From positions 32,001 to 96,000 of the forward strand of contig JBGAQA010000006.1 of assembly GCA_044220955.1 (NCBI GenBank): DNA of 64,000 nt, given 5' to 3'. The notes beneath the pieces were generated by a model. The model saw nothing but the letters and a program-made list of their open reading frames with translations, searched no databases and was not told the origin of the DNA. Positions 1 to 37,327 of this stretch are shown here, piece by piece. Both the position numbers and the translations under genes were made by a program. Position 1 is the stretch's first letter. Every line of letters begins with the position of its first letter. The DNA comes from Sandaracinaceae bacterium. Its GTDB lineage: Bacteria; Myxococcota_A; Polyangia; Polyangiales; Sandaracinaceae.

Positions 1-2
1 GC

Positions 3-1610
3 GGCGCGCGCGTGTTCGCCAGGACCGGCTCGAGCTGGGCCGAGCAGGCGTTCTTGCGGCCCGCGGACGGAGTGCTGACGGTCGCCCTCTCCTCGGACGG
101 TCTGCGCGTGGTGACGGGCGCGTGGGCAGCCACCGTCGCGGGCCGCCAGCAGGCGGGGAGCGCCGCGCTCTTCCACCGCGTCGGCACGTCGTGGATCGCG
201 GGCCCCGTCGTCACGGCGCCCGACGGCGCGTCGTACGACGCGTTCGCGTCGCACGTCGCCCTGTCGGCGGACGGCACGCGCGCGGCGTTCGCGGTCCCGC
301 AGGACGACACGGGCCCGGGGCTCTTCGACGCCGGGAGCGTCCGCGTCTTCTCCGTCACGCTCGCGGCGGTCGGCGATCGATGCGCCGTCGGGGGCGCCTG
401 CGCGACGGGCTTCTGCGTCGACGGGGTGTGCTGCGCGACCTCGTGCGGTGGCGGGGCTCCGAGCGACTGCGCGGCGTGCAGTGCCGCGCTCACCGGGGGC
501 GCCGACGGAACGTGTGCCCCGCTCGCGCCGGTGTCCGCCGCGGGCGTGACGTGCCGCCCGGCGGCGGCCGCGTGCGACGCGCCGGAGACGTGCAGCCCGT
601 CCAGCATGCTCTGTCCTCCGGACGTGGTCGCGAGCGTGGGCACGTCGTGCCGGCCGGTGCTCGGCGTGTGCGACGCGCCCGAGACCTGCGACGGCGTGAG
701 CGCCACGTGCCCCGCCGACACGTTCGCGAGCGCCAGCGTGGTCTGCCGCCCGGCCGTGTCGGTGTGCGACGTGGCCGAGCAGTGCTCCGGGACGAGCCGA
801 TCCTGTCCGCCGAACGTCGTGGGGCCGGCGGGCACGGTCTGTCGTCCGGCGACGGGCGTGTGCGACGCCGACGAGATCTGCGACGGAGCGTCACCGGCGT
901 GTCCCGGCGATCGGCTGCAGCCCCCGGGCAACGTCTGCCGGGGGGCCGCGGGACCCTGCGACGAGAGCGAGGTCTGCGACGGTACGTCCGCCTCGTGCCC
1001 CGACGATCGCGTCCAGGAGGTCGGTGTGGTCTGTCTCGCCGGGAGCGCGACCAACCCGTGCGACGTGGCCGACGTCTGCGACGGCAGCGCCGTGGAGTGC
1101 CGCCCGCGCTTCGCACCCCGCACCACGGTCTGCGCGCCAGCGGGGTCCGGGCCGTGCGACGCGCCCGACCACTGTGCGGGCGTGAGCGCCGACTGCATCG
1201 CCGAGTACGTCGTCGGTGCCGAGTGCCGCCCGGCCGGCGGCGCCTGCGATCGCCGCGAGGTGTGCTCGGGCAGCAGCCCCGACTGCCCGCCCGATCTCGT
1301 CGCGACCGCGGGCGCCTCGTGCCGCACGTCGACGGATCCGTCGTGCGATCCGGAGGAGACCTGCGATGGCACCGCGTCGTCGTGCCCCGCGGATCAGAGC
1401 ACGTGCATGCCGAGGCCGGATGCCGGGGGCGAGGACGCCGCGACGCGCGATGCGGGGCCGAGCGATGCGTCGACGGCCGCAGACGCCGGGCGCCCACCTC
1501 CGTCCGCGGGGTGTGCCTGTGTCGTCGCCTCGTCGTCGCGTCGTGCGCCAGGTGTCGTCGCCGGGCTGCTGGTGGGTCTGCTCTCGCTGCGACGTCGTCG
1601 TCGAGCGTAG
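3..1610 (+). CDS. Surface protein: FG-GAP-like propeller repeats + Cys-rich disintegrin-like repeats + MYXO-CTERM tail (5' partial)
   Basis: Frame is open from the window edge. 'DAFASHVALSADG..AGSVRVF' FG-GAP motifs; ~9 'CRPAxGxCDxxExCDG' repeats; C-terminal 'GCAC..hydrophobic..RRRRR'. Confidence 0.8.
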   Translation, partial: GARVFARTGSSWAEQAFLRPADGVLTVALSSDGLRVVTGAWAATVAGRQQAGSAALFHRVGTSWIAGPVVTAPDGASYDAFASHVALSADGTRAAFAVPQDDTGPGLFDAGSVRVFSVTLAAVGDRCAVGGACATGFCVDGVCCATSCGGGAPSDCAACSAALTGGADGTCAPLAPVSAAGVTCRPAAAACDAPETCSPSSMLCPPDVVASVGTSCRPVLGVCDAPETCDGVSATCPADTFASASVVCRPAVSVCDVAEQCSGTSRSCPPNVVGPAGTVCRPATGVCDADEICDGASPACPGDRLQPPGNVCRGAAGPCDESEVCDGTSASCPDDRVQEVGVVCLAGSATNPCDVADVCDGSAVECRPRFAPRTTVCAPAGSGPCDAPDHCAGVSADCIAEYVVGAECRPAGGACDRREVCSGSSPDCPPDLVATAGASCRTSTDPSCDPEETCDGTASSCPADQSTCMPRPDAGGEDAATRDAGPSDASTAADAGRPPPSAGCACVVASSSRRAPGVVAGLLVGLLSLRRRRRA

Positions 1611-1623
1611 CGGGGCCGGCCGG

Positions 1624-2592
1624 TCAGAACACGACGTCGCAGCGCACACCGACGTCGGCGAACGAGGTACAGCGCAGATCGCCCGCCTGCCGCTCGGTCG
1701 GTGCGCTCGGCGCTCCCAGGATGAGCCCGAGCCCCGTGGCGATCAGGGCGCCACCGGCCGCGTACCCGACGACCACGAACGGGAGCGAGAGGCGGTAGCG
1801 GTTCTGGAGATCGAAGCAGGTCGGGGCGTTGCCGGGGAGGACGTTGTCGGTGGCGGCGTCGACCGTGCACGAGCCGGCGTCGATGTTCGCGTTGAGCGTG
1901 CCCACCGCGCTCGCCCAGATACCCGTCGCGACGGCGCCGCCGGCGGCGAACGCGAGCCCGGTGATCAAGCTCGCCCAGCCGACGTCCCGATAGGTCCCGC
2001 CGGGATCGGGCTGCGGCGCGGCGCCGCCGCCTCCGCCGTCGGACGCATGGCGCACGAGCGCGAGCTCGATCGTCTCGTTCTCGCCGCCCTGGACGCTCAC
2101 GCGCCGCGTGATCGCGTCGTAGCCCTCGGCGCGCGCCACGATCTCGTGGTCGCCGAGGTCGAGGTCGACGGTCTGGCCCGTCGCGGGCGCGCCGTCGACG
2201 TCCACCGACGCGCCGTCGACACTCGCGTGGATGGTGAAGTGCCCCACGAACGCGCGGGCACGGGCGAGCAGCCCCGTGACCTCCGCGCGCATGTCGTCGG
2301 TCAGCGGCGAGCGCTCGTCGGCCAGCGACGCCTCGAGCCAGCGGATGCACTCGCGGTACCGGCGCAGCTCGAACGCGGTCTTGCCGAGGGCGCGCTCGCT
2401 GCGCGCCGTGGGCTGCAGCTCGTGGACGCGGGCGAAGAGCGCGTAGGCCTCCTCGTAGTTGTGCGCGTCGTACTCGCCGACGGCGGCCGCGAGCAGCGCG
2501 TGAACGTCGTCGTCCTGGGCGGACGCGATCGCCGCCGGCAGCGCCAGCGAGAGAGCGAGACCCAGCAGGAGGCGAGCCATGACGTCGAGCAT
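1624..2592 (-). CDS. TPR + PEGA domain protein with C-terminal hydrophobic helices
   Basis: Real gene is the 3' part of ORF 1624..3885. Signal peptide MLDVMARLLLGLALSLALPAAIASAQ; TPR 'YEEAYALFARVHEL..ALGKTAFELRRY'; PEGA 'GASVDVDG..LDLGDHEIVARAEGY'. Alternative start at 2580. Confidence 0.8.
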   Translation of the reverse strand: MLDVMARLLLGLALSLALPAAIASAQDDDVHALLAAAVGEYDAHNYEEAYALFARVHELQPTARSERALGKTAFELRRYRECIRWLEASLADERSPLTDDMRAEVTGLLARARAFVGHFTIHASVDGASVDVDGAPATGQTVDLDLGDHEIVARAEGYDAITRRVSVQGGENETIELALVRHASDGGGGGAAPQPDPGGTYRDVGWASLITGLAFAAGGAVATGIWASAVGTLNANIDAGSCTVDAATDNVLPGNAPTCFDLQNRYRLSLPFVVVGYAAGGALIATGLGLILGAPSAPTERQAGDLRCTSFADVGVRCDVVF

Positions 2593-2600
2593 ACGCGTCC

Positions 2601-4154
2601 TCAGAAGTCGTCGAGCGACACACCACCGGCCCGGTGCGTGCTCGCCCCGGTCGTCGCGACGGTCGTGGGCGGGGGTGGGGCGCTCACGTGCGCTGGCGTG
2701 GTGTCGGCGGAGGCGCCGCCGCGATCGTGTCGCCGGCCGTCGTGCCTCGCGCCATCGTCCGCATGACCAGGCCGCGCGTCGCCTGTCTCGGGCTGGGTGT
2801 CCGGTGCCGCCGCGGCCACCGTCGCCGGGACGGTGCTCGCCGGGACGGTGCTCGCCGGGACGGTGCTCGCCGGGACGGTGCTCGCCGGGACGGTGCTCGC
2901 GGCGACGACGACCGCGGGCGGCACGGCCGGGGGCGCGCCCGTCGACGGCGCCGCGGCGATGCTCGTCGGCGGAGCGCCCGGCCCGCCGCTCGCGACCGTC
3001 GGCGCGCCCGAGCTCATGACGGCTGCGGTCGCGGCGGCCGCGACGGCCACGACGCCGAGCGCGACCAGCGAGGCCCAGAGCCACGGCCGCGCCGCGCCGC
3101 TCGCCGCCGGCACCGCGCTCGTGGTCGCGAAGGGCGTCGCGGTGATCGCCGCGCTCCGCGTGGCGGCCGGGGACGGTGGCGCGACCGGCCCGGTCACCTG
3201 TCGCGGGCTCGGGGCCATCATCGTGGCCAGCATCGAGTGCTCGGGATCGCCGTGTCCCGGGCGAGTCGAGGACGGCTTGGGCTCCGAGCTCGCCCGCCGC
3301 AGCGCCTCGAAGAAGTCGGTGACGCTCTTGTAGCGGCCCTCGGGGCTGCGCGTGAGCGCCGTGTCGAGCACGTCGCTGATGGCGCCGAGCTCCGGCCGGA
3401 ACCGGCGGAGCGGGTGGACGTCGCCCGTCACGACCGAGAGCACGACCGCCGTGGCCGTGGCTTCGGGAGGGATGTCGAACGGAGGCCGCCCCGCGAGCGC
3501 CTCGTAGGTCATCACCGCGGTCGACCAGAGGTCGCTGTGCGGCCCGACGTCCTTCGTCCTTCCCATCGCCTGCTCCGGCGACATGTAGAGCGGCGTGCCC
3601 ATGACCGAGCCCGTCTGCGTCGCCGATCCGGCGCTCGCCTGCGTGAGCTTCGCGATCCCGAAGTCGAGGACCTTGGGCACCATCCGGCCGCCCGGCCCGC
3701 GGCTCAGGTACACGTTGTCGGGCTTGATGTCGCGGTGGACGATCCCGTGCGCGTGGGCCGTCGCGAGGGCCTCGCAGACCGGGCCGATGATCGAGAGCAC
3801 CTCCGCGGGGGGGAGCGAGTGCTTCTCCTCGAGGTACTGCGCGAACGACTGCCCCTCGAGGAACTCGAGGACCATGAACACGCACCCGTCCGGCGAGACG
3901 TCCACGTCGTGGACCGCGACGACGTTGGGATGCTGGAGCTTCGAGGTCGCCTGCGCCTCGCGCAGGAAACGCTCGACGACCTCCGTCGACTGCGAGAACT
4001 GGGCGTGGAGGAACTTCACCGCGACGCGGCGATCGAGGCGCAGGTGTACGCCGTCGTACACGACGCCCATGCCGCCCTCACCCAGCACGCGATCGAGCCG
4101 GTACTTGCCGTCCAGGACGGTGCCGACGCGTTCTTGGGCCGTCAGGATGGGCAT
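2601..4154 (-). CDS. Membrane Hanks-type Ser/Thr protein kinase
   Basis: GEGGMGVVY, VAVK, HRDIKPDN, DFG and GTPLYMSPEQ motifs; TM segment; low-complexity tail. Confidence 0.95.
   Translation of the reverse strand: MPILTAQERVGTVLDGKYRLDRVLGEGGMGVVYDGVHLRLDRRVAVKFLHAQFSQSTEVVERFLREAQATSKLQHPNVVAVHDVDVSPDGCVFMVLEFLEGQSFAQYLEEKHSLPPAEVLSIIGPVCEALATAHAHGIVHRDIKPDNVYLSRGPGGRMVPKVLDFGIAKLTQASAGSATQTGSVMGTPLYMSPEQAMGRTKDVGPHSDLWSTAVMTYEALAGRPPFDIPPEATATAVVLSVVTGDVHPLRRFRPELGAISDVLDTALTRSPEGRYKSVTDFFEALRRASSEPKPSSTRPGHGDPEHSMLATMMAPSPRQVTGPVAPPSPAATRSAAITATPFATTSAVPAASGAARPWLWASLVALGVVAVAAAATAAVMSSGAPTVASGGPGAPPTSIAAAPSTGAPPAVPPAVVVAASTVPASTVPASTVPASTVPASTVPATVAAAAPDTQPETGDARPGHADDGARHDGRRHDRGGASADTTPAHVSAPPPPTTVATTGASTHRAGGVSLDDF
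2822..2900. repeat. 15-bp tandem repeat x5 (TCGCCGGGACGGTGC) encoding (ASTVP)n in the kinase tail
   Basis: Read directly from the sequence. Confidence 0.95.
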
Positions 4155-4172
4155 GGCTCTAGCGACCTCACG

Positions 4173-5855
4173 CTAACACGCTTCCTTGGCTCGCCGTCGC
4201 CGCCGCCGCACGGCGACGAGGCTGCCCGCTAGCGCGAGCGCCAGCACGGAGGGGCTGCCGCCCGCGGCGCCAGCCTCGCACTTGCAGCCGCTGACGTGGT
4301 GGAGCGGCCCCGTCCCGCCGTCCATGCCGACGCCGCCGTCGCCGCCCGTCGAGCCACCGGCATCGACGCCGGAGTCGACGTCCACAGCCCCTGCATCGCA
4401 GGCCGCGGGCGTCGAGCACGTGCCCGCGCCGCAGGTCCCGCTCATCCCGCACGCCGTGCAGGACATCGTCTCGCGCGCGGCCGTGCAGGCGCCGTCCGTC
4501 GTGCCGCCGTTCGCGATGCTGCACGCGACGCAGTCGTCCGTCGCGCCGCCGCCGCACGCGCCCTCGCAGCAGACGTCGTCGACGCAGAAGCCCGAGCCGC
4601 AGCGCTCCGCGAGCGTGCACGCGTCTCCGTCCTCGAGCGGGAAGGGGAAGACACCCGCGTAGCCCAGCGTGGCGCTCGCCTTCGGGGCGCCACCGACCAC
4701 CGTCGCGCCCGAGACGGCCACGCTCGAGCCGAGCAGATCGCCCATCGTCCCGGTCGATGCGTGGTAGCGAGACGCGAGGTGCCAGCCGCCGCCCGACGCG
4801 TCGGGACGGAAGAGGTACACGCTCCCCGAGTCGCTCGTCGGATCGTCGTGGTTCGGGGCGCCGACCACGATGGCGTCGGGGCTCGCCGCCACGCTCCGTC
4901 CGAAGTGGTCGCTCGCCGCCGTGTCGGTGGCCGTGAGGGCCACCGCCGAGCCGATGTCCGGCCAGCCGGTCGACAGCGACGTGCGCACGAGCCCGTAGGC
5001 GGCGCCGCGGCTGCTCTCCTCGTCGGCGCCGATCGCCGCGACCAGGCCGTCGGTCGAGAGCGCGACCGACGTCCCGAACTTGCCCGTCGAGGGCCCGCGG
5101 ATCGGGGCGCCGAACATCCACGTCCCGCTCAGCGTGGCCGGGTAGACCGTGTTCGCCTCCGGGGCGCCGACGAGGATCGAGACGGTGCTCGCGTCCGCTG
5201 CGACCGCGACCGCTGCGCCGAAGCGCTCGCTGCCGGCGACGGCCGTCGGCGTGGTGAGCACCGGCCCGAGCATCGCTCCCGCGTCGTCGAACACGAACAC
5301 GGCACCGGCCCGGCCGCCGCCGCTGTCCGGCGCGCCGATGACGATGGCGCTCCCGGAGGCTCCACGCGACGCGATCGCGACGGCGAGCCCGAAGCGCGTC
5401 GGAGCGCCGCCGGGAGGCGCGACGCGGCTCGCCGTCCAGGGAGGCGTCCCGCCGCCGCGCGTCACGATCCACGCCTGGCCCGCCATGGACGCGTGTCCCG
5501 GGTCGCCGACGATCGCCGTCGTGCCGACGAGCGCGACGCTCGAGCCGAACATGTCTCCCGTGTTGGTGCTGCTCGGCTCGGGATCGGCCAGGGTCTGCTC
5601 GAGCTCCCACGTCGCCGCCGCGGTGCGGTGGTAGATGTAGACGGTGCCGCGGGTCGTGGCCGTGCCCGTGCCGGGCACGCCGACGAGCACGTAGCTCCCG
5701 TCGATCGCCACGGCGGCACCGCCGCGCAGCGCGCCGCCGCTCGCGGGCGCGAGCAACGCCTCTTCTCGCGCGGACGGCTGCGCGCTCGCCAGCGAGGCCG
5801 GCAGGCACGACGATGCCAAGAAGAGGGCTCCGAGGGCGCGTCGTCGTGCGTGCAT
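4173..5855 (-). CDS. Secreted FG-GAP repeat protein with Cys-rich module and MYXO-CTERM tail
   Basis: Signal peptide; repeated 'FGxSVA..IVVGAP'; 'CGSGFCVDDVCC'; 'SGCKC..LALALAGSLVAVRRRRRR'. Confidence 0.85.
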   Translation of the reverse strand: MHARRRALGALFLASSCLPASLASAQPSAREEALLAPASGGALRGGAAVAIDGSYVLVGVPGTGTATTRGTVYIYHRTAAATWELEQTLADPEPSSTNTGDMFGSSVALVGTTAIVGDPGHASMAGQAWIVTRGGGTPPWTASRVAPPGGAPTRFGLAVAIASRGASGSAIVIGAPDSGGGRAGAVFVFDDAGAMLGPVLTTPTAVAGSERFGAAVAVAADASTVSILVGAPEANTVYPATLSGTWMFGAPIRGPSTGKFGTSVALSTDGLVAAIGADEESSRGAAYGLVRTSLSTGWPDIGSAVALTATDTAASDHFGRSVAASPDAIVVGAPNHDDPTSDSGSVYLFRPDASGGGWHLASRYHASTGTMGDLLGSSVAVSGATVVGGAPKASATLGYAGVFPFPLEDGDACTLAERCGSGFCVDDVCCEGACGGGATDDCVACSIANGGTTDGACTAARETMSCTACGMSGTCGAGTCSTPAACDAGAVDVDSGVDAGGSTGGDGGVGMDGGTGPLHHVSGCKCEAGAAGGSPSVLALALAGSLVAVRRRRRRAKEAC

Positions 5856-5945
5856 CGCGGGCCCGTACGATACGCCGCCATCACACGGTCGTGCCAGGGA
5901 TCACCGTCGAAGGGCGCCACGCGGCGCAGCACCCGGGGCCACGCC

Positions 5946-5980
5946 GAACCTCCGCGCCCTTGCGCGCGCTGGAACCTGAA
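5946..5980 (-). repeat. att-like copy of the tRNA-Leu(CAG) 3' half (anticodon loop to T-loop)
   Basis: GAACCTCCGCGCCCTTGCGCGCGCTGGAACCTGAA vs 13608-13642 GAACCTCCACGCCCTTGCGAGCGCTGGAACCTGAA: 33/35 identical, same orientation. Confidence 0.9.
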
Positions 5981-6062
5981 GCGAGATTCGACGGCCTGAA
6001 CTCAATGATCTCCACGACTTGAGTCGCGTCACTGGACGTCAGAGGCCGTCAGGAACCGTCGA

Positions 6063-6085
6063 ATTCTGGGCACGGTGCCCAGAAT
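6063..6085. repeat. Perfect 11-bp inverted repeat ATTCTGGGCAC-G-GTGCCCAGAAT near the island end
   Basis: Read directly from the sequence. Confidence 0.85.
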
Positions 6086-6291
6086 GAACTCGACGCGCAC
6101 CTCGCGCGCTTCCGCGTTGAGACGGACCGCGACGCAGCGCGGCGGTCGATGTCCTCGAGTCGCACCGCGACGCCGAAGTGCGGGTCGACGCCGAAGCGAG
6201 CCGCCTGCGCATCGTCGTCGAGGACGTGTTCCCCGGCCAGCGCTACCAGGATCTCACGATCTCGGAGATACGCATCTACTGCGCCCAGTGA
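6086..6291 (+). pseudogene. Gene fragment: C-terminus of a discoidin-like / NADase-type glycan-binding domain
   Basis: Manual translation across one frameshift ends '..RLRIVVEDVFPGQRYQDLTISEIRIYCAQ*', resembling the 'EVYPGxKYxDxxISEI' motif. No start codon. Confidence 0.5.
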
Positions 6292-6398
6292 ACCGCGCGG
6301 GTGAGTACTCGAGCCGTCAGACGCACGCCGCGCAGTGCCGTCATCACCGCAACACCGCGTTCCCTTGGGCGCTGCGAGGTTGCGGAGTTGATGCCGGC

Positions 6399-6836
6399 CT
6401 ACGACCGTCCCCCGAAATCTGCACTGTGCTCGGCAGCGAGTACGCGGGCCGCCACCAGGACCAACAGGTCGCGCGCCCGTCCCGTGGCGGACGGCGTCTC
6501 CGCGATGAGCGTCTTGGCCTCCTCGAAGGTGGTCCACCGCACCGCGTCGGTCTCCTTCGGATCGGGATCTCCGACACGCGCGCCTGCGCGCATCAGCCAG
6601 AAGCGCGTGATGGATGTGGTACCAGCGAAGTCCTTAGCCAACGGGGCGATGATCGTCGCCGTGTATCCAGTCTCCTCGAGCACCTCGCGCAGCGCAGCGG
6701 CCTCAGGAGCTTCGCCGGGATCTGCGCCGCCCTTCGGGAACGTCCAGGCGTATCCGCCGAAGTTTCCTGTCGCGTGGCGCAGCAGGAACCGCCCGTGGGC
6801 GTCGATGACCACGCCGCCGCAGGCCATCTGCTTCAT
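6399..6836 (-). CDS. NUDIX hydrolase
   Basis: Nudix box 'FPKGGADPGEAPEAAALREVLEETG'; ATG at 6836 overlaps the upstream stop (ATGA). Confidence 0.92.
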   Translation of the reverse strand: MKQMACGGVVIDAHGRFLLRHATGNFGGYAWTFPKGGADPGEAPEAAALREVLEETGYTATIIAPLAKDFAGTTSITRFWLMRAGARVGDPDPKETDAVRWTTFEEAKTLIAETPSATGRARDLLVLVAARVLAAEHSADFGGRS

Positions 6837-7180
6837 CGCGCCCTCGATGACCCGCGCGTGATGCGCCGGAGGATGGACCACACGTCGAGGTAGAGGTGCG
6901 CGCGCTCGGGAGCGTGCTGTTCGACGCGGCCCTTAAAGTTCTCGTAGTCGATGTCCTTCACCGCGGCGGCCGCAGCGCTGGCGACGGCGGCCACGGGCGC
7001 GCGTGCGCGGAACGGGTAGTCGGAGCCGCCCTTCGTGGTCGGCCCGAGCTCGGGGAGGTAACGCTCGCGAAGCTTGTCGAGATCGGGGGCGGCCCGAGCG
7101 CGGACGGTGAGCATGCCCTCGGCGGCGTCGCCCGGCTTGGCGACGATGGAGAAGAAGCCGGCGGTCGTGATGAGCCACAT
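6833..7180 (-). CDS. Small conserved hypothetical protein (MWLITTAGFFSIV..DYPFRA..IDYENFK type)
   Basis: Globular composition; motif pattern recalled from phage/mobile-element hypotheticals; translationally coupled to the NUDIX gene. Confidence 0.8.
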   Translation of the reverse strand: MWLITTAGFFSIVAKPGDAAEGMLTVRARAAPDLDKLRERYLPELGPTTKGGSDYPFRARAPVAAVASAAAAAVKDIDYENFKGRVEQHAPERAHLYLDVWSILRRITRGSSRAR

Positions 7181-7222
7181 GAGTACAAGACGGCAAGGGC
7201 AGGGACGAACTGACGCTCGTCG

Positions 7223-8398
7223 TCAGAATCCCGCTCGCTGACGGTGCGCTTGCAACCCGACTGCTGACGGGCGATGGGCCGGCGCGGCGGGGAGGTCGAA
7301 CGGCGCAGCATGCAAAGCCTTGTACGACCCTTCCCGCAGTCTCGGGTGAAGCACGACGGTCCACGTGTCCGTGTCGATGGCGAGCAGTCCGCGGTCAAAC
7401 AGCGTGTGGAGGTCGGCCCGGAGCAGCATCCCGTTTGGTGCGTCGTCTCCCCCGTCCGAGGCAACGGCGACAATGTGCGCAGCCTCCAGTGCCTCGCGAC
7501 AGTCGCAGGCAGTGATCGGGCAACGGTTGTTGTAGATCTTGCCGAGCAGCGAACGAAAGGCCGGCTGCCCAGTTCGTTCGAAGATCGCTCGCAGCATTCG
7601 TTCCCGCGCGTCGGCCGCGTCAGCGGGGGCCTCCACATCGGCGGCAAGCGCATCGAGGTCGCGCTCGACCTCCTCCGCGAGGTGTTCCGCGCTCGTGGTC
7701 TTTCCGCGGAATCGGCCGAGTGCTTCGACATCGTCAGCCGCCCAGGACGCCGGCGGCGCGTACTTCATCGCGTACCAGACGAGGTCGTGCGCCTGAAGCC
7801 GGTTCACCTTCGTCCCCTGCGCGCTCGACGCTGCGGCCACCGCGTCGAGGAACGACAGGGCGTGCTCGTACGCAGCGAGCGGCTCGGCTCCCCCCGGGCC
7901 TGCCGGATAGCCAGCCAACCGGTACGCGGTTCGGTACGTGTAGTCCTTGTACGGTACCCGTGTTCGGGGATCCGTGGCCCCAGCAAGGGCCGCCACGAGG
8001 CTGAGCCGATAGCCAGGGCCTCGGTGGATCTCGCCCAGCGCCTGAAGAAGCGGATTCATCGATGCGGGCCAAGAAGCGTCAGGTGCCCACAGCGCGAGTA
8101 GAGCCGCCGACGCGCGTGCCGGATCCGCATCGATCCACTTCTTGAACAGATCGACCATCTGCCATGCGACTACCGTTCCGAGCCCGCCAGCTTTCGTGTC
8201 GGCGTGCGCGCGGAGCGCGAGGACGACCTGCTTCGCCCAGTCCGGCTTGCCGGCCACCAACGCGTCGCGCCCGAGCGCGAGCCGCGCGTACCCCCGAAGC
8301 TTCCACTCTTCCTCGTGGTCGCCGAACTCCTCCCGAAACCGCAGGCCCCAGTACGCGATCTCGTGGACGTTGTGTTCTCCGATCGGGAGCTTGGACAT
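7223..8398 (-). CDS. HNH endonuclease with a ~240-aa helical N-terminal domain (candidate restriction nuclease)
   Basis: C-terminal 'RTGQPAFR..YNNRCPIT..LEAAHI..NGMLLRADLHTLFDRGL' is HNH_2-type. Confidence 0.9.
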   Translation of the reverse strand: MSKLPIGEHNVHEIAYWGLRFREEFGDHEEEWKLRGYARLALGRDALVAGKPDWAKQVVLALRAHADTKAGGLGTVVAWQMVDLFKKWIDADPARASAALLALWAPDASWPASMNPLLQALGEIHRGPGYRLSLVAALAGATDPRTRVPYKDYTYRTAYRLAGYPAGPGGAEPLAAYEHALSFLDAVAAASSAQGTKVNRLQAHDLVWYAMKYAPPASWAADDVEALGRFRGKTTSAEHLAEEVERDLDALAADVEAPADAADARERMLRAIFERTGQPAFRSLLGKIYNNRCPITACDCREALEAAHIVAVASDGGDDAPNGMLLRADLHTLFDRGLLAIDTDTWTVVLHPRLREGSYKALHAAPFDLPAAPAHRPSAVGLQAHRQRAGF

Positions 8399-8511
8399 CG
8401 CGCCACAATATCGTGCTTCGCGACCAACGAGAAGCAGGTCCGTGCCGCGAAAATGGGCCGATTCCGCCTATCAGATGAATCCGTGCCCAGATCGGTCCGC
8501 CGCGGCGTGGG

Positions 8512-9818
8512 TCAGTGCAGCACCGCGACGGGCGCGCGACGCGCCCGCGGCATTGCCCCGAACGCCCGCCGCGCGACCTCCGGCACCAGGGCGCCCGAGC
8601 GCATCTCGCTCATCCGGTCGAACACCCGGCGGTCGGCTCCGCGCTCCTCGCGCCACCTCCGCCGCAGCGTGCGGTGCTCCTCCGCGAGCTCGATCACCTT
8701 CGGGTGGTTCGCGACAACGACCAGCTCCTTCATTCCGACGGTCGACCTCTCGAAGTACGTCGCGAGGTCCCGTCGCATACGGCGCGCGAGCTCGACCTCG
8801 TCGTGGTCCTCGTGGGACTCGACCTTGCCTCGTCCTCCACCCGCGAGGACGCGAACGGTCAGCGGCAGCGCGATGGCCGCGTGGCACGCGTGACGGGTCG
8901 CGTCGTCGGTCTGCTTCGCCTCGGCCGCCGCGAGCGCCGCGTAGATCGCTCCGAGCGGGTCGAGCCCCACGAACCGCTCCGCGGCCTCGAGCGCCAGCCT
9001 GTATCGGCCGAGCGAGAGCAGGGCGGGCGCGCGGAGCTGGTCGGGCCAGTGGTCCGTCGGCGAGAGCGCGGTCATCTCCTCGGCGATGGCGAGCACGCGG
9101 GCGTGCTTGCCAAAAAAAACTCGTCGCTTCCGCGGTGCGGACGGCGTCCTCGCAGGATCTCCGCTGCGCGCGTGTAGTGCGCGACGGATGCCTCGCCCGC
9201 ACGACGTGCTCCCGCGTGGTCGCCGAGGCGAGCGTGTCCGTAGGCCCAGTCGGGGAACGCACGCACGAGGAGGCCGAGCAGCTCGTCGCTGGCGGCCGTG
9301 TCGTCCTCGCCCGCCAGCTCCTCGACGAGCTCGGACGCGAGCAGCGACGGCTGGGTCGCGCGACCGAGACGACCGAGCCCCGGTGCGCGCGCCGGTCTCG
9401 TGGAGTCGGCGCTAAGAAGCCCGTCGATCAGTGCACGGAGCGCACGGAGGTCGGGCGCGGAGTCGCTGATGAGCGTGCGCGCGTCCTTGTAGATCTCCGG
9501 GTCCACCGACGCGAGCGTGCCCGCGAGCGCCACGATCTCGTCCCGGAACGACGTCCCGACGCGCTTGGCCGAGTCCTCGCCCTCGGGGAGCTTCTCTGCG
9601 AGCGCGCGCACCCGACTTCGCAGCGCCTTCCAGTCGAAGCGCAGGTTGGGATGCGCGGCGCGGATCTGGTCGGGGATCCGCGGCCCTCGGAGGAAGTCGT
9701 CGGTCTCCGAGCGCGAATAGAACGTGTAGAGGATCTTCTGCTCGACGGCTCCACCGGCGGGCCGACGCACGCCGTGGACGATGAGCACCTGATCTCCGCG
9801 GGCACGAACGTAGGGCAT
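8512..9818 (-). pseudogene. TPR-like helical protein split by a frameshift at or near a T8 tract (9112-9119)
   Basis: ATG 9818 with AGGAG RBS (MPYVRARGDQVLIVHG..). ORF 9072..9878 and ORF 8512..9096 overlap, and the coding frame switches at GAG-TTTTTTTT-GGCAAG. Confidence 0.7.
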
Positions 9819-9836
9819 GGCGGCTCCTGGAGCCGA

Positions 9837-9868
9837 TGTTGTGTCACATACGCAAGTGCAACACAACA
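9837..9868. promoter_or_regulatory. Operator-like inverted repeat TGTTGTGT-N16-ACACAACA between divergent island genes
   Basis: 8-bp perfect arms, inner CAC/GTG, AT-rich context. Confidence 0.5.
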
Positions 9869-9973
9869 GTTGCCGCATCGGAGGGGCAGCGGCAGGCTCG
9901 CGGTCGCAACGAGACGGGCGCGGCGACCGCGCCGACGTGACACTCTCTGCCCGAATCGCCGAGAACGAACCTC

Positions 9974-10986
9974 ATGAAAAGGCGACCGAAGAGAGCGTCC
10001 GCGAAGTCGAAGAAAGTCTCATCGCTGGTGAGACAAACGTCGGCGAGCAAGTCGGTGCCGCGCACGGCTGCGAGCGCGCTCGCCCTGACCGACGAGGCCC
10101 GGTTCGCCGAGGTCGTCGACCTGATCGAGGCGGCACGTGGGCGGGCGTACCAGGCGGTGAACTCGGAACTCGTCACGCTGTACTGGCAGCTCGGGGCGTA
10201 CCTCATCCGACGTTGGCACAGAGGGGGAAGATCGAGAGCGCGGAGTGGGGTGACGGCGTCGTCGAGGAGCTCGCGGCCGTCCTCGCGCGGCGCTACCCGG
10301 GTCTGCGTGGCTTCGCGCGCCCGAACCTGTTCCGAATGCGCCAGTTCTACGAGGCGTACCGCGGGAACGAGAAAGTCTCGGCGCTGCTGAGACAATTGCC
10401 CTGGACCCACCACCTCATCGTCCTGAGCCAGGCGAGGCCCGAGGCGACGCGCGAACTCTACCTCCTCGCCGCCATCAAGGAGCGGTGGACCTCCCGCGAG
10501 CTCGAGCGGCAGATCCGCTCCGGGGCCGTGCTCCGCGGCGTGCTCGCGACGAAGAAACTGTCGCCAGCGGTGACACGGATCCATCCCGAGGCCGAGGCCG
10601 AGCTGAAGAACGCCTACAGCCTCGAGTTCCTCGGCCTCGCCGCGGAGCACTCGGAGCGCGACCTCCACGCCGCGCTGCTCCAGAACCTCGGCCGCTTCAT
10701 CACCGAGCTCGGCCGTGACTTCTGCTTCGTCGGCTCCGAGTACCCGGTCCAGGTCGGCAACCGGGACTTCGCGATCGACCTCGTGTTCTTCCACCGCGGG
10801 CTCGCCTGCCTCGTCGCCATCGAGCTCAAGGTCGGCGAGTTCGAGCCCGAGCACCTGGGCAAGCTGAGCTTCTACGTCGAGGCGCTCGACCGCGACGTGA
10901 AGAAGGCGCACGAGCGCCCGTCGATCGGCGTGCTCCTCTGCGCGAGCAAGGATGCCGAGGTCGTGGAGTACGCGCTCACGGGGTGA
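9974..10986 (+). pseudogene. yhcG: YhcG / DUF1016 PD-(D/E)XK nuclease family, frameshifted and probably 3'-truncated
   Basis: Frame 1 'AYQAVNSELVTLYWQLGAY', then frame 2 'KIESAEWGDGVV..LPWTHH..FAIDLVFFHR..AIELKVGEFEPEHLGKLSFY..EVVEYALTG*'. Switch at 10205-10227. Confidence 0.85.
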
Positions 10987-11038
10987 CCTCAACGCGAGCG
11001 ATCGATCCGCCCGCGGGGATGTTTGGGGTGGCTCGGGG

Positions 11039-11440
11039 CTACATCTTGCCGACCACCACTTCGGCGAGGGCATCGACGGCCGGGAGCCATCGCTCGGTGC
11101 CGTCCGCCGCGTTCGCCGTCTTCGTGCTGGTGAACACCCGTGCCGCGCGATCGTAGCGAAGCGAGACACTGCTTGCCTGGTTCACGTCGTGGTTCGGATA
11201 GACGACGAACTCGCAGTTCTTGCGGACGTAGGAGACCCAAACCAGCCCGTTCCCGGCTGATCGAGTTCGATGAAGGCCGAGCATCGGGCCCTCGTCCTTC
11301 ATCGCGCCCATCCCGACGGACCGAGCGAGCGCCTCGAGTTCGTTCAGCAGACCGACTGCCGCTTCGAGCTTCGCAGCCGCCTCAGCTTGGGGGTTCAGCT
11401 CTTCGATCGCATCGTTGAGCGTGTCGAGCGCCGTCTTCAT
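11039..11440 (-). CDS. Hypothetical protein (133 aa)
   Basis: Protein-like composition from MKTALDTLNDAIEEL; no recognised motif. Confidence 0.6.
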   Translation of the reverse strand: MKTALDTLNDAIEELNPQAEAAAKLEAAVGLLNELEALARSVGMGAMKDEGPMLGLHRTRSAGNGLVWVSYVRKNCEFVVYPNHDVNQASSVSLRYDRAARVFTSTKTANAADGTERWLPAVDALAEVVVGKM

Positions 11441-11670
11441 TGGTCGAACCGTAACACCGTCTGCCCCTACTGGTATCCCGACGCCTGAGCCCGTCGTCGC
11501 TGGCGTCGGTGCGTCGCGTCGCAGAACACCGATTCTGCGACTTTCGTGGGCCTGTACCTGACGGCCCGACGTCGCGGAAGACGCGACGATGAAGAGCACG
11601 CCCACGCTACCCGACGACCAATGGCGATTGGTAGTATTCTGACGCGATCGCGTTGGGGAAAGGGATCGCG

Positions 11671-12579
11671 ATGATCAGACAAGTCCTTCGATTCTCGATT
11701 CTTGGCGCGCTCGGGACACTCGCGGCCTGCGGCTCCGATGCGGGCACGCCGCCGGCGCCATCGGCGGCGGCACCGGCACCGACCACCGCGTCAGCGTCCC
11801 CCTCACCATCTGAGGTCGTGGACGCGGGACCGCCCGAGCCGCCGTCCCCCGCCGATCTCGCGGGCGCTGCTCTCGAGCATCACGACTTCTCGGCGGTCTG
11901 CGGCTTCCTCGTCAGCGAGGGGTTCGCGCAGAACGTGTGCGACTGGATCGCGGCGACAGCGGCCGGTGAGCATCCGTCGCTCTCGTCGCGCCAGCTCGAG
12001 ACCTTCATGCGGGCGCAGCATGTGCGGCGCGTCTCGGGCACCATCGTGGGTGACATCGGCCCGAACGAGTACGAGACACGCATCAGCGGCCGCCTCGCGA
12101 TCCTCACGACGACGGAGACCACGTTCACCACGACCGGCCACTTCTCGATGTGGGCCCAGCAGAACGGCACCAGCGAGGAGGACCTCGCGAGCGGCCGCAC
12201 CGTCGATGTCCCCATCTACCGCGAGTGGCTGCTGTTCGACTCGATCACCGGGATCGCTCGCGGGTCCCGCGACGATGCCGCCGAGCGCGCACAGGACGTC
12301 CTCGAGGAGCTCCTCGCCATGTGGACGATCGACTACTGCCGCACCGACGACGAGACGGGCGACTGCTGGGTCGATCCCGCGAGCGTCGATGCGGGCGTGG
12401 CCGCGGAGGGCGTCGATGCGGGCTTGCCGCCGGTGTCTGCCGCGAGGCGCCGCGAGTGCCGCGAACTGATCTGCTTCAACTACGTCGAGTGCCATCGCGC
12501 CGGGCTCCCGGCGTACGAGTGCGCGCCCGACCTCACACCAGAGTGTCGGCGCTGCCGTGCTGAGGGCGCGGTGCGCTGA
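11671..12579 (+). CDS. Hypothetical lipoprotein with Cys-rich C-terminus
   Basis: Lipobox LAAC; Pro/Ala linker; C-terminal cysteines. Confidence 0.75.
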   Translation: MIRQVLRFSILGALGTLAACGSDAGTPPAPSAAAPAPTTASASPSPSEVVDAGPPEPPSPADLAGAALEHHDFSAVCGFLVSEGFAQNVCDWIAATAAGEHPSLSSRQLETFMRAQHVRRVSGTIVGDIGPNEYETRISGRLAILTTTETTFTTTGHFSMWAQQNGTSEEDLASGRTVDVPIYREWLLFDSITGIARGSRDDAAERAQDVLEELLAMWTIDYCRTDDETGDCWVDPASVDAGVAAEGVDAGLPPVSAARRRECRELICFNYVECHRAGLPAYECAPDLTPECRRCRAEGAVR

Positions 12580-12622
12580 GATCCGAGGGCGTCACGCCCT
12601 CTTTTGCCGCCACGAGGAGTCC

Positions 12623-13420
12623 ATGTCCCTGCTCATACATCGCTGTCCGTCGCGTGGTCCCGTGCAGTCTTGGCGGCGCTTCTGGTGCTTGGCGGTTGCG
12701 CCGGGCTCGACCGCGCGGAGGCGGCCCGTCTGATCCAGGACGAGCACTTCGGTGCCGACGACGACCGACGCTCTCGTTCCACGTCCGCCCGGCCACGGCC
12801 GCCGCGTGTGCGCAGCACATGATCGCGTGGGCGGATTCCGACGAAGCCTCGTGCCTCGGGCCGCTCGCTCAGGTCGGTGTCGTCACCGCCTGCGGCTACG
12901 CGGAGATCGAGGGAGGCACGACAGCGCCGTCGGCCTGGGCGGTCCCGAGGACGCCTTCGATCGTGAACCTCGAGCCCGCCGACTGCGGCGGCTCCTACAG
13001 CGACTTCCTCCAGGAAGGGCGCGAGCGATTTCCGAACGACAGCGCTCGCAGAGACGCCTTGGTCTTCGTAGCGACCTCGCCGCGACCGCGATGGACCAGG
13101 CGACGTGCGAGGAGTTCATGACGAGGAGTCGCGCCGCCACGGCGTCCGACCCTCGCGGACACCCGCGCACGTTCATGCGAGCGCGCATGCCAGGCGCCCG
13201 ACGCTTCGGCGAGGTGACCGGCATCGCTGACGGCGCGGACGGCGTGAAGAACGTGGACTTCACGTGGACGACCGACCCGCAACGGATCCCGAGGATCACG
13301 CTGGGCGGGTGCGCGCTCGAGACTGGTGAGTCGCCGACAGCGGCGCCACAGAACTCGCGCGCCACGTTCCGCGACTACGACGACGGCTGGCGTATCGACA
13401 GCGTCGCGTGGGACGACTGA
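12623..13420 (+). pseudogene. Lipoprotein gene broken by 2-3 frameshifts
   Basis: AGGAG+ATG 12623. Lipobox 'LLVLGGC' (ORF 12604), middle part (ORF 12654) and C-terminus '..ATFRDYDDGWRIDSVAWDD' (ORF 12752) lie in successive different frames. Confidence 0.65.
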
Positions 13421-13540
13421 ACGCCGCGGGCGTTGGTCGTTGCCGAACGCCTTCGAGCGCGCCCATCCCGTGAGGACGGCCGGATGTGCGAGGGCGGGAT
13501 TTCTGGTCCCATCCGTCGCGATTTCGCCTCCGAAAACGAC

Positions 13541-13582
13541 GAATCCCGGGTGGCCAGGATCGCTCCTAACCACCCGGGATTC
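13541..13582 (-). terminator. Hairpin immediately downstream of tRNA-Leu
   Basis: GAATCCCGGGTGG..CCACCCGGGATTC 13-bp stem, followed on the minus strand by GTCGTTTT. Confidence 0.65.
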
Positions 13583-13590
13583 CTCACCTA

Positions 13591-13674
13591 TGCGGAAGAG
13601 AGGACTTGAACCTCCACGCCCTTGCGAGCGCTGGAACCTGAATCCAGTGCGTCTGCCAGTTCCGCCACTTCCGC
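13591..13674 (-). tRNA. tRNA-Leu(CAG)
   Basis: GCGGAAG/CTTCCGC acceptor; CTGGA-TTCAGGT-TCCAG anticodon arm; long variable arm; GGTTCAAGTCC. CCA not encoded. Confidence 0.97.
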
Positions 13675-13685
13675 GCGGGATGCGG

Positions 13686-13714
13686 TAGGTACGCAATCGG
13701 GGCCGACGCGTCAA
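13686..13714 (-). promoter_or_regulatory. sigma70-like promoter of tRNA-Leu
   Basis: TTGACG-N17-TACCTA just upstream of the tRNA. Confidence 0.5.
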
Positions 13715-13874
13715 GCCGGAGCGCGGCTAGGAAAAGTCTGCGTACTCCGTGCAGAGGATGCGAGGAGCCGACCCCGCCCGTACCTCTTTCCCCGTGGTCG
13801 CCCCCGGTCCAGACCCCGGCAGATCGCTGGTTTCGAATGCGATCCGGCCGAGCGGTCTGCCGTAGGATGGCGGA

Positions 13875-14507
13875 ATGCGAATTGCACTCGTGCCGTCCAC
13901 CGTGCGTTCCGTCCGCCAGAGCCGCCGTCGTTTCGCGGGCTTCACCCTGCTGGAGCTGATGATCGTCGTCGCGATCATCGGGATCACGGCCGCGCTCGCG
14001 GCCCCCGCGATCATGAACGCCATGGCCATCTCGCGGGCCGATCGCGCCAACCACGACATGATCCGACTCGTCCGCCACGCGCGCTCTCAGTCGATGGCGT
14101 TCGGACGGACCTACCTGCTGCACATGGTGACGACGGGGAACGGTCGCGCCGAGCTCTGGCAGGGCACGACCTCGGTCTGCCGCATGGAGAACTGGGCGAC
14201 GATCATGGCGACGGGCCCCTGCGCTGCCCCCGCGGTGCCCGGAGGCAACTGCGTCGACTACGTGGACGCGACCATGTACGACTCGGGGGTCCACCAGGTG
14301 CGCTTCACGTCGGTCGGCTCGGTCGACCTCTGCTTCCAGCCCAACGGCGAGGCGGTCCAGCGCGCGTCGAGCAGCACCGGCGCCTTCACGCTCCCGGTCA
14401 CGGGCTTCGCGCAGATCAACACCGAGCGTCTCGAGGGCGGCAGCGCGATCCCGCCCAACCGCGGCGTGATCATCCCCGTCGGTGCCGCGCCGAGGGCGCT
14501 GCGATGA
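13875..14507 (+). CDS. fimU: Type IV minor pilin, FimU/GspH-like
   Basis: Prepilin site G|FTLLELMIVVAIIG; 'ARSQSM' motif. Confidence 0.8.
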   Translation: MRIALVPSTVRSVRQSRRRFAGFTLLELMIVVAIIGITAALAAPAIMNAMAISRADRANHDMIRLVRHARSQSMAFGRTYLLHMVTTGNGRAELWQGTTSVCRMENWATIMATGPCAAPAVPGGNCVDYVDATMYDSGVHQVRFTSVGSVDLCFQPNGEAVQRASSSTGAFTLPVTGFAQINTERLEGGSAIPPNRGVIIPVGAAPRALR

Positions 14508-15121
14508 GCCGCCCGACGCGGGTCCCGGGCGCGAAGCGGCGCGCGCGCGCCGGCTACACGCTCATCGAAGTGATGATGGCGATCGCGATCATCACCGCGA
14601 GCTCCGTCGCGCTCGTGGGCCTTCAGGAGATCGTGGTGCGCGGCAACATGGACGCGCGCCAGATGACGACGGCCACGACGATCATCCGCACGACGCTGGA
14701 GCTCCTGCGCCTGGACGCGCTGAACTGGACGCAGTCGTACCCGTCCGCCGGGACCGTGATCTGGGGCGTCAACGCGCGCGGCTTCCTGCGCGACGTCCCG
14801 ACGGCGGCGGGCGCCGCCGCGCCGGCGTGGACGCCGTTCGGCACGACGATCGGGGCGCCCGAGCACGCGTACGACTACCAGGGCCGCGTCACCACCGTCG
14901 CGGCCGACATGTTCTACTGCGTCGAGACGCGCTACGCGTGGGTCTATCCCGGCCAGGCGCTGCGGGCCGACGTGCGCGTCTGGTGGGTCCGCCCCGGGCC
15001 ACTCGTCAACGCGGCCCTCTTCACGGGCTGCCCGACGCAGGGTTTGACGCTCAACACGGCGAACCTCCACTCCGCGCAGGGCACGACGGTGCTGCGCTAC
15101 ACGCCGCAGGGGCTGCCGTGA
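14504..15121 (+). CDS. pilV: Type IV minor pilin, PilV-like
   Basis: ATGA overlap; G|YTLIEVMMAIAII; position in cluster. Confidence 0.78.
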   Translation: MSRPTRVPGAKRRARAGYTLIEVMMAIAIITASSVALVGLQEIVVRGNMDARQMTTATTIIRTTLELLRLDALNWTQSYPSAGTVIWGVNARGFLRDVPTAAGAAAPAWTPFGTTIGAPEHAYDYQGRVTTVAADMFYCVETRYAWVYPGQALRADVRVWWVRPGPLVNAALFTGCPTQGLTLNTANLHSAQGTTVLRYTPQGLP

Positions 15122-16362
15122 GCCGGCGCGCACGCAAGCCGGGGCGCTCGGCGCGCGCCCGCAAGAGGGCTGGCTTCACGCTGCTCGAGCTCATGGTCGC
15201 CCTCGCGATCGGCACGCTCGTCGTGGCGACGATGTACACGCTGAGCGGCGCCTCGGCGCGCGCGTTCCAGACGCAGCAGCGCATCAGCCAGCTGCAGCTC
15301 CAGACGCGCTTGGCGCTCGAGCGCGTGCGGCGCGACGTCGCGGCGGCCGGCTTCGGTGGCACCCCGGACTCGCAGCGCGAGCGCATCTGCGGCACGGCCG
15401 GGATCACCACGCGCCTGCTCGCCGTGCAGCTCACGGATCACGATCCGGCCGCGACCGGCGCGCTCGCCACGATGACGGGCGCCGCCGCCGCCGCGACCCA
15501 CGGCGACCGCCTCCGGCTGCTCGGGAACTTCGCCACCTCGGACACCTACCTGATCGCGAACACGGGCTCGGCGAACGGGTCGTCGATCCTGCTGCAGAGC
15601 AACTGGCAGGCGTTCCGTCGCACGTTCGCGGCCGATCCGCTCGGCACGACGGTGGACAGCTCGCTCTTCCAGCAGGTGTTCGCGACGGGCCGCGTGCTGC
15701 ACATCACGCACCCGCGCGGCTATCACTTCTTCACCGTCGTGCAGAGCTCGTCGGTGGACTCGGCCGGCCGCACGCCGAGCATCTCGGTCAGCCCGCCGCT
15801 GCCCTCGCTCGACGAGTGCAACTTCTCGCTCTGCGTGGGCTGCCAGGTGACGCCGCTGATGATGGTCGAGTACGGCATCGATACCGCGGCCAACGTGCTC
15901 GGCGCCGGCACGGGCCTGGTCGGCAACGACCCGCTCGTCACGGGGACCAACACGGTGCTCTACCGGCGAGAGCTCGATCCCGCGACGGGCACCCCGATCG
16001 CGGGGCAGACGGCGCGCGTCGTGCTCGAGTACGCCGTCGACTTCGAGGTGATGGCGATCTACGACCAGGCGCCGGTGGGGAACCCGCCACGCCTCTCGCC
16101 GCCCGTCGCGGCCATCCCCGTCGGGCTCGAGTCGCGCGTACGCGCGCTCACGGTGTCCATCGCGGGGCGGACGTCCGACATCGACCCCACCTATCCGTTC
16201 CCGTACGCGGGGATCCGCAACGCCACCATCAACCCGGTGACGGGCTTCGCCATCGATCCGCTGACGGCGTTCCCGGTGTTCAACGACCGTCCCGGCTCGG
16301 CGCGGGTCCGGACGGCGATGGCAGAGTTCGTGCTGGAGAACCTCGCGCTCCGAGGGCTGTGA
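15118..16362 (+). CDS. pilW: Type IV minor pilin, PilW-like
   Basis: GTGA overlap; G|FTLLELMVALAIG; 'RRDVAAAGFG' motif. Confidence 0.8.
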   Translation: MSRRARKPGRSARARKRAGFTLLELMVALAIGTLVVATMYTLSGASARAFQTQQRISQLQLQTRLALERVRRDVAAAGFGGTPDSQRERICGTAGITTRLLAVQLTDHDPAATGALATMTGAAAAATHGDRLRLLGNFATSDTYLIANTGSANGSSILLQSNWQAFRRTFAADPLGTTVDSSLFQQVFATGRVLHITHPRGYHFFTVVQSSSVDSAGRTPSISVSPPLPSLDECNFSLCVGCQVTPLMMVEYGIDTAANVLGAGTGLVGNDPLVTGTNTVLYRRELDPATGTPIAGQTARVVLEYAVDFEVMAIYDQAPVGNPPRLSPPVAAIPVGLESRVRALTVSIAGRTSDIDPTYPFPYAGIRNATINPVTGFAIDPLTAFPVFNDRPGSARVRTAMAEFVLENLALRGL

Positions 16363-16363
16363 C

Positions 16364-17065: not shown

Positions 17066-17091
17066 AGCAGCCGTCTCGAGGAGGAGCCCCC

Positions 17092-37126: not shown

Positions 37127-37131
37127 GGTAG

Positions 37132-37205
37132 CGGACCCAGGAGGATTCGAACCTCCGACAACTGGTTCCGTAGACCAGTGCTCTATCCAGCTGAGCTATG
37201 GGTCC
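37132..37205 (-). tRNA. tRNA-Arg(ACG)
   Basis: GGACCCA/TGGGTCC acceptor; CTGGT-CTACGGA-ACCAG; GGTTCGAATCC. Confidence 0.97.
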
Positions 37206-37218
37206 CGAGGGGAGGCGG

Positions 37219-37246: not shown

Positions 37247-37292
37247 ACGTGGCGAAGCCCCGCCGTCTTCGGTTCGTCGCGGTGATCAGTTC

Positions 37293-37320: not shown

Positions 37321-37327
37321 CGCCCGC

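Follow-up and report, generated by a model that had tools for sequence, protein, structure and literature searches.

The END nucleases carry an inactive EndoIII/Ogg domain fused to PLD, NucS or McrB and restrict phages that have hypermodified DNA (Yee et al., 2025; PMC12191111). As given in that preprint, END-Mag restricted phages with modified G, and its sensor matched the Ogg proteins of T. maritima, M. jannaschii and S. solfataricus (Extended Data Fig. 6 legend). The preprint also lists VcaM4I as an EVE-HNH enzyme. The gene of another modification-dependent nuclease, SauUSI, is linked to a MutT/Nudix gene of untested role (Xu et al., 2011; PMC3141236), and ADP-ribosylglycohydrolase (ARG)-centred host systems that counter viral ADP-ribosylation, as well as MuF-Nudix phage proteins, have been described (Iyer et al., 2022; PMC9503650). 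Here, a cassette of three genes is compared with these systems. It is found in a 64,000 nucleotide stretch (termed the window) of contig JBGAQA010000006.1 from a Sandaracinaceae bacterium, and encodes a 391 amino acid (aa) protein with an N-terminal domain (the N-domain) and a C-terminal HNH_2 nuclease domain, a 115 aa protein of an unnamed family (X115), and a Nudix hydrolase. The reading favoured here, with moderate confidence, is that of an END-like modification-dependent nuclease with an HNH effector, situated beside a separately inherited X115-Nudix module.

The three open reading frames (ORFs) are co-oriented and unbroken. The nuclease and X115 genes are separated by 42 bp (7181–7222), and the X115 and Nudix genes overlap by ATGA at 6836–6833. 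A contig from run X1 is identical to the window over positions 5600–9111 (0 differences, 0 gaps), and therefore the three frames are not the result of an assembly slip; run X1 is possibly the source sample itself and thus does not provide independent support for the occurrence of the cassette. Runs X2–X4 share only short pieces with the window. Third-position GC is 0.78 in the nuclease gene, 0.90 in X115 and 0.81 in the Nudix gene. A scan of positions 6200–8700 for sigma-70 promoters and terminators found none.

At the predicted structure level, the AlphaFold model of residues 1–233 (72 sequences) is all-helical and has a predicted local distance difference test score (pLDDT) of 96.6. For this part of the protein, no family in Pfam, NCBIfam or PADLOC scored above cut-off. 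In a Foldseek-independent search of 48,161 chains, T. maritima Ogg was the top match to the N-domain (Z 8.1, root mean square deviation (rmsd) 3.7, 167 residues aligned) and the next row was at Z 5.3; the other rows with at least 147 aligned residues were EndoIII, OGG1, AlkA, AGOG, MagIII, Mag1 and DUF2419. The top three matches of a second structure search were the Ogg proteins of T. maritima, M. jannaschii and S. solfataricus (Z 8.2, 8.1 and 7.3; rmsd 3.4–4.0; 162–165 residues aligned), the same three Ogg2 enzymes that the preprint's legend lists for END-Mag. Foldseek placed Pa-AGOG first (E 0.097, probability 0.84), followed by OGG1 chains. The Ogg2 match is regarded as consistent because three members of one family cover the whole domain and stand well above the rest. 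On these models, the N-domain is predicted to have an Ogg2-like helix–hairpin–helix fold. Two Atlas leads for the N-domain, DUF8425 (0.91) and ScoMcrA_N (0.86), found no support in Pfam and were set aside.

In glycosylases, the Lys of the helix–hairpin–helix motif and an Asp are the catalytic residues. The N-domain segment G127-P-G-Y-R131 lines up with GVGHK of a host Nth-like protein, and P149-Y-K151 with its PVD, with matching spacing. In a weak alignment with one PF21790 protein, LD falls on Y150-K151 (E 0.011; score 22.0, the highest of 20 shuffles reaching 19.9). Among the 72 aligned relatives, 57 have Arg at position 131 and 51 have Arg or Lys at position 151. The residues at these positions suggest that the N-domain is a glycosylase fold without the catalytic Lys and Asp, with Arg131 and Lys151 found instead. 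PF21790 was present in one of 251 genomes searched.

The N-domain belongs to a family without a Pfam model, for which there are 402 representatives at 50% identity; the best 150 of these matches were analysed. AAA_5 is present in 42 of the top 76 relatives, EVE in three, MrcB_N in two and HNH_2 in three, and a second, partly overlapping set of 77 relatives displays AAA_5 in 36 and EVE in eight. In a set of 153 proteins, a Walker A motif is present in 86 and HNH in 12 (that of the window included); the other 55, many of them fragments, have neither. In the phylum, five of 400 other genomes have the N-domain, in all five cases as part of AAA_5 proteins, and McrC (PF10117) adjoins the N-domain/AAA_5 gene at three of these five loci. 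Of the remaining two loci, one is on a contig that is too short and one has no McrC-like neighbour. The front domain of McrB is a DNA-reader slot, and this slot is occupied by the N-domain. Some McrB-type proteins (P0085, P0094, P0109, P0151 and L296–L299) have tandem or stacked readers before the GTPase, i.e. two Ogg-like copies, or an Ogg-like domain plus EVE or MrcB_N. A HARE-HTH reader is also stacked beside the N-domain in some McrB-type relatives.

The C-terminal part of the 391 aa protein matches PF13391 (HNH_2) at residues 293–342 (E 9.8e-12). H308, N322, H331 and D335 are invariant in all eight aligned full-length forms and, judged by these residues, the HNH active site is intact. A match to NF045808 is limited to residues 273–349 and scores 34 bits vs. 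a cut-off of 180; the HNH-side neighbours in the search carry ScoMcrA_N (PF26345). Pfam shows no PLD or helicase domain in the protein. A second full-length Ogg-like-HNH gene was found neither in 401 genomes of the order (single-protein query), nor in 383, 32 and 88 genomes of three families (full-length profile), nor in 401 phylum genomes (N-domain profile), these genome samples being overlapping. No full-length gene was present in the plasmids or viral contigs searched, and an HNH-pattern scan of metagenomes had no full-length relative among the matches listed; 80 HNH_2 loci from the metagenome scan are used below as a control set. Longer forms have also been seen. The metagenome protein L180:3-1238 consists of an Ogg-like domain, an unassigned middle domain of ∼150 aa and HNH_2, and P0161 and P0207 are further longer Ogg-like-HNH proteins.

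By architecture, the 391 aa protein may be termed END-like: it has the predicted fold and a nuclease domain, and no methyltransferase is found nearby among the ORFs of the surrounding island (see below) scanned with Pfam, NCBIfam and PADLOC. Properties shared with the END nucleases, as these are presented in the preprint, are a nuclease joined to an EndoIII/Ogg-like domain (predicted in the present case, and possibly inactive as in the END enzymes), the lack of a methyltransferase, and a sensor that is also found on McrB GTPases. It differs from them in having HNH_2 as effector and not PLD or NucS, and the sensor is N-terminal, whereas that of END-PaCF1 is C-terminal. In addition, the window protein has no PF21790 match, is followed by X115 and Nudix genes, and is known from sequence alone. 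The main text of the END preprint mentions HNH twice, never as an END fusion, and among the papers searched this preprint was the sole match to an Ogg-like reader–nuclease architecture.

Only the reader domain is common to McrBC and the present protein, as there is no McrB (AAA+ GTPase) or McrC (PD-(D/E)XK nuclease) here; Pfam gave no AAA_5/McrBC match in the cassette or the island ORFs. ScoMcrA, TagI and the sulfur-binding HNH enzymes are reader-HNH type IV restriction enzymes. These share with the 391 aa protein an N-terminal reader and a C-terminal HNH_2 domain, but the reader in the window is modelled as all-helical and Ogg2-like and is not of the PUA/SRA/EVE or sulfur-binding type; no Pfam domain of those types was found in the 391 aa protein. 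The SauUSI locus resembles the present one in that the gene of a modification-dependent nuclease is linked to a Nudix gene (PMC3141236). However, SauUSI is a PLD-helicase enzyme, whereas the window nuclease is HNH_2 and the Nudix has X115 as a partner of its own.

A search of GTDB genomes gave 205 matches to X115, and viral contigs gave a further 123. The loci analysed are the best 80 of the 205 genome matches and the best 80 of the 123 viral matches. No Pfam, NCBIfam or PADLOC family is found at E ≤ 0.1, and the window protein has no PHROG. Residues W2, F9, S11, R27 and R29 and the DY and YxNFK motifs are kept in at least 99% of 163 aligned X115 domains. A Foldseek search of the PDB gave nothing at E ≤ 0.001, and the best Z in a wide fold search was 5.1 (an XPB region and the N-terminus of T4 UvsW); a 'double-wing' DNA-binding reading of the XPB/UvsW matches is unsupported at this Z. 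The fold matches of X115 in BFVD are two unnamed viral proteins only, and those in the Atlas are unnamed clusters only.

In 31 of the 80 genome loci, X115 carries a fused Nudix of the window subfamily at its C-terminus, and in 10 more this Nudix is encoded directly after X115. The X115-Nudix link is thus present in 41 of 80 genome loci, or in 19 of 36 clusters at 70% identity. The window Nudix is 39–54% identical to 20 X115-fused Nudix tails, and 10 of 16 longer Nudix relatives begin with X115. X115 and Nudix form a module of their own, and this is found across many phyla. Neighbours of bacterial X115 genes include WYL, ADP-ribosylglycohydrolase, Sir2, Macro, MavL, DSP phosphatase, HD, RtcB, GmrSD, HsdM and integrases; the survey covered one representative per cluster (215 of 222 representatives), with up to three upstream and two downstream genes and a rough gene caller. 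A second type of X115-Nudix fusion has a conserved insert of ∼80 aa, starting with HPRxD, before a more distant Nudix (L008, L019, L021, L031, L043, L058, L062, L065, L069, L070 and L074). In L009, L046, L049, L063 and L013, one or two unnamed conserved domains (MEEKWF...HRSWTG, QPNYLGSP) accompany X115-Nudix, and L026, L029 and L034 each have two X115 copies close together, one opposite or in tandem.

The Nudix protein of the window matches PF00293 (E 2.8e-20; 73 bits vs. a cut-off of 21), and the Nudix box GX5EX7REUXEEXGU is intact in the translation. All its NCBIfam scores are below cut-off. The closest solved relatives are Ndx1 (E 5.5e-11) and Ap4A hydrolase (E 2.6e-8). ADP-ribose or dinucleoside polyphosphates would be the likeliest substrates. 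Eight of the 80 viral X115 loci hold the window Nudix subfamily, in three cases as part of a MuF head protein encoded two genes upstream of X115. Phage MuF head proteins with this Nudix subfamily (L081:2806-5631, L086:2755-5673 and L088:2742-5648) are 941–972 aa in length; beyond the Nudix, a stretch resembling a kinase and a C-terminal end resembling an ADP-ribosyltransferase can be seen by eye. At these loci, the MuF-Nudix gene is followed by a small gene and then by X115. The site after a MuF-type gene often holds immunity genes. The subfamily is also found in P0247, an inositol monophosphatase–ADP-ribosylglycohydrolase–Nudix fusion.

These contexts can be compared with those described by Iyer et al. 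(2022). The ARG-centred systems have an ADP-ribosylglycohydrolase core with a phosphatase and a WYL or Nudix-HTH regulator. Genes for ADP-ribosylglycohydrolase, WYL, phosphatase, Macro and Sir2 are likewise present at X115-Nudix loci other than that of the window, and the fusion of the window Nudix subfamily to MuF in phages is shared with the MuF-Nudix proteins. The window differs in that no ARG, WYL or phosphatase gene was found among the island ORFs scanned, and the Nudix is free and not fused to a helix–turn–helix (HTH) domain. X115 is not recognisable in the section of PMC9503650 consulted.

The original prediction took the trio to be a selected defence module, and the gene neighbourhoods do not support one conserved unit. 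The Ogg-like domain is absent from all 160 X115 loci and HNH is found in one (L039, in which the start of the contig truncates an HNH gene 1.3 kb upstream of X115); 71 of the 80 genome loci have at least 1.3 kb of upstream sequence. Neither domain is present in seven further X115 loci of the order (1.5-kb flanks). X115 or the window Nudix is found in none of the 80 HNH_2 loci and none of five McrB-type loci, and none of the 16 longer Nudix relatives carries the Ogg-like-HNH nuclease. Of the co-occurrence that had been suggested as a check, the X115-Nudix part is borne out, fusions of the two proteins included, whereas, outside the window and among the loci and proteins analysed, the nuclease occurs with the Nudix only in P0036. 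This protein is a Nudix–Ogg-like–HNH fusion whose Nudix and nuclease parts are 50% and 45% identical, respectively, to those of the window. It is the only one of 11 other Ogg-like-HNH proteins with a fused Nudix; the nuclease–Nudix link has been seen twice, i.e. in the window and in this fusion. A PADLOC analysis, also suggested at the outset, assigned no family to X115 and none above cut-off to the N-domain, and matched the Nudix to PDC-S07 (35.5 bits, E 1.6e-9), which has no stated cut-off and scores at the same level as generic Nudix models. The claim that the HNH protein is a modification-dependent (type IV-like) nuclease has fared better, with the Ogg2-like predicted fold and the McrB/McrC context of relatives pointing to the same conclusion.

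By analogy with the END enzymes, the 391 aa protein is likely a modification-dependent (type IV-like) anti-phage nuclease. The Ogg2-type fold, its catalytic residues apparently lost, would bind non-canonical bases in incoming DNA. By analogy with END-Mag, these would most likely be modified guanines such as 7-deazaguanines, and the intact HNH domain would cut phage DNA near the bound base. X115-Nudix may clear by-products or signals that arise in conflict, in the form of ADP-ribose or dinucleoside polyphosphates, and perhaps X115 acts as a ligand- or nucleic acid-binding partner of the Nudix.

A number of observations weigh against an END-like nuclease beside a separate module. With respect to the fold, Foldseek gave nothing for the N-domain at E ≤ 0.001, and Z scores of 7–8 can be reached by helical proteins through a common arrangement. 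There is no sequence match of the N-domain to PF21790, AGOG or HhH-GPD, its profile has 0 matches among PDB sequences, and profile alignments with the Nth, MutY and AlkA-like proteins of the host score within shuffles. The catalytic positions were mapped from motif spacing rather than from a structure alignment at residue level. Fusions to NucS or PLD are absent from the N-domain matches analysed, and the N-domain family is a branch different from the tested END enzymes. As for the module, 39 of the 80 genome loci and 72 of the 80 viral ones hold X115 with no fused or nearby Nudix of the window subfamily, and many X115 neighbours are ordinary housekeeping genes. The P0036 fusion is also a point against the reading, because two independent modules do not predict it.

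P0036 would be more readily expected if the three proteins were coupled, the nuclease cutting modified DNA and X115-Nudix removing modified deoxynucleoside triphosphates (dNTPs), excised modified nucleotides or ADP-ribose marks, with both arms directed at one and the same phage modification. The fusion is natural and has a gene order different from that of the window, the spacing of the three genes is tight (42 bp and ATGA), and both partners are rare in the order (X115 in 8 of 401 genomes, the N-domain convincingly in 1 of 401). The HNH gene upstream of X115 in L039 and the linked Nudix genes of SauUSI-like enzymes (PMC3141236) point in the same direction. Set against this are the empty counts among the X115, HNH_2 and McrB-type loci and the longer Nudix relatives, and the 10 of 11 other Ogg-like-HNH proteins that have no fused Nudix; moreover, P0036 could share an ancestral island with the window. 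Coupling is held to be doubtful, if the most serious of the alternatives. A different question is whether the N-domain reads a modification at all. It might recognise a phage protein, or a sequence or structure in DNA that is not modified, as part of a solitary sequence-specific or abortive nuclease. Readers of unmodified sites are known among McrB-family N-domains, the match to the Ogg2 fold is modest, and the tandem, EVE and MrcB_N stacks imply a reader without naming its ligand. However, the island ORFs scanned have no methyltransferase, and of the proteins that combine this fold with a nuclease, the only ones tested act against hypermodified phages (PMC12191111). An unmodified target appears unlikely.

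The possibility that the trio are inert passengers of a decaying island, in 2 kb that have not yet been hit, is slighter again. No integrase was found among the scanned ORFs of the 7.7-kb island, the YhcG gene is broken, a gene fragment is present, and none of 31 other genomes of the family has the cassette, but all catalytic motifs are kept, and a passenger status would be silent on the roles of these families elsewhere. Very improbable is a GO-like repair trio, in which the N-domain would be an active glycosylase/lyase and the Nudix would clean 8-oxo-dGTP. An Ogg2 fold beside a Nudix with weak MutT matches is what such a trio would display; yet the Lys and Asp positions appear to be replaced, relatives of the N-domain are fused to McrB and adjoin McrC, the MutT score is 37 vs. 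a cut-off of 148 bits, and the host has three other HhH-GPD genes.

The cassette is part of an island of 7.7 kb between a tRNA-Leu gene and a 33/35 partial repeat of it (Table 1). GC drops from 0.73–0.77 at positions 1–6000 to 0.665–0.70 at 6001–14000. The flanking genes, judged by eye, and the names of the closest relatives of the nuclease suggest a myxobacterial host. The tRNA-Leu site is a variable insertion site in the genus: it is occupied in genome G131, and genome G127 has no island there. The G131 island (G131:C4:140200-160100, L280) is a 19-kb integrase island at the same tRNA-Leu site, bounded by a 52-bp att repeat, and its cargo includes NADAR, PRTase-CE, IrrE-like, DUF3892 and AAA_15 ATPase genes.

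Table 1. Positions of the cassette, its domains and the island features in the window
Feature	Position	Strand	Basis or remark
HNH_2 nuclease gene, 391 aa	8398-7223	minus	ORF and Pfam
N-domain, ~residues 9-214	8374-7757		
HNH_2 part, ~residues 258-390			
X115 gene, 115 aa	7180-6833	minus	ORF; unnamed family
Nudix gene, 145 aa from ATG at 6836	6836-6399	minus	ORF and PF00293
tRNA-Leu(CAG), island anchor	13591-13674	minus	ARAGORN
att-like direct repeat, far island border	5946-5980		33/35 identical to tRNA-Leu part 13608-13642
YhcG/DUF1016 gene, frameshifted and shortened, island cargo outside cassette	9974-10986	plus	PF17761, PF06250

The original prediction described three co-oriented, intact genes with a 42-bp gap and an ATGA overlap, which is what the ORFs read directly and the X1 contig display, and contrasted them with four broken genes in the same island. 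The latter count stands in part. The YhcG gene is broken, with a change of frame between ∼10206 and ∼10239 and a stop at residue 360 vs. a relative of 407 aa, and this region is identical in the X1 contig. A 56-codon piece at 6121–6288, with 52% identity over 46 aa to part of a gene on another contig, looks like a gene fragment. The apparent frame break between ORFs 9878–9072 and 9096–8512 sits on a run of eight A residues (9112–9119). X1 contigs end on both sides of this run, the length of which may be an error or differ between members of the population. A further apparent split, at ∼12.6–13.4 kb, has no homologue among the loci analysed. Two further island ORFs, 11605–11039 (188 aa) and 11653–12579 (308 aa), also look unbroken; therefore, intactness does not single out the trio, and the argument from selective intactness is weak. 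To the right of the tRNA gene, at 13875–20565, translations show by eye a type IV pilus-like prepilin cluster and a PilY1-like ORF of 1167 aa, and the DNA of this region is conserved in genomes of the same genus. A tRNA-Arg gene and three tRNA-Ser genes are clustered in a GC dip at 37131–38331.

The END nucleases have been reported as the first restriction enzymes that sense many phage hypermodifications, and they block therapeutic phage families (PMC12191111). With an HNH effector, the END-type sensor would be combined with a third nuclease chemistry, and such a protein offers a small, single-chain, NTP-independent enzyme with which the ligand of an inactive Ogg domain can be tested. The N-domain family, with its 402 representatives, annotates a large set of McrB readers. 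A three-part system, in which an Ogg-derived reader-HNH acts on hypermodified DNA and X115, as a ligand-binding domain shared with phages, aims the Nudix at the supply of modified dNTPs or ADP-ribose, is put forward only tentatively and is unlikely; if true, phage modification would be attacked both in DNA and in the nucleotide pool. X115 itself, an unnamed domain of wide distribution, has near-invariant polar residues, occurs in phages as well as bacteria and is linked to a single Nudix subfamily; as such, it is a ready target in the search for a new conflict nucleotide.

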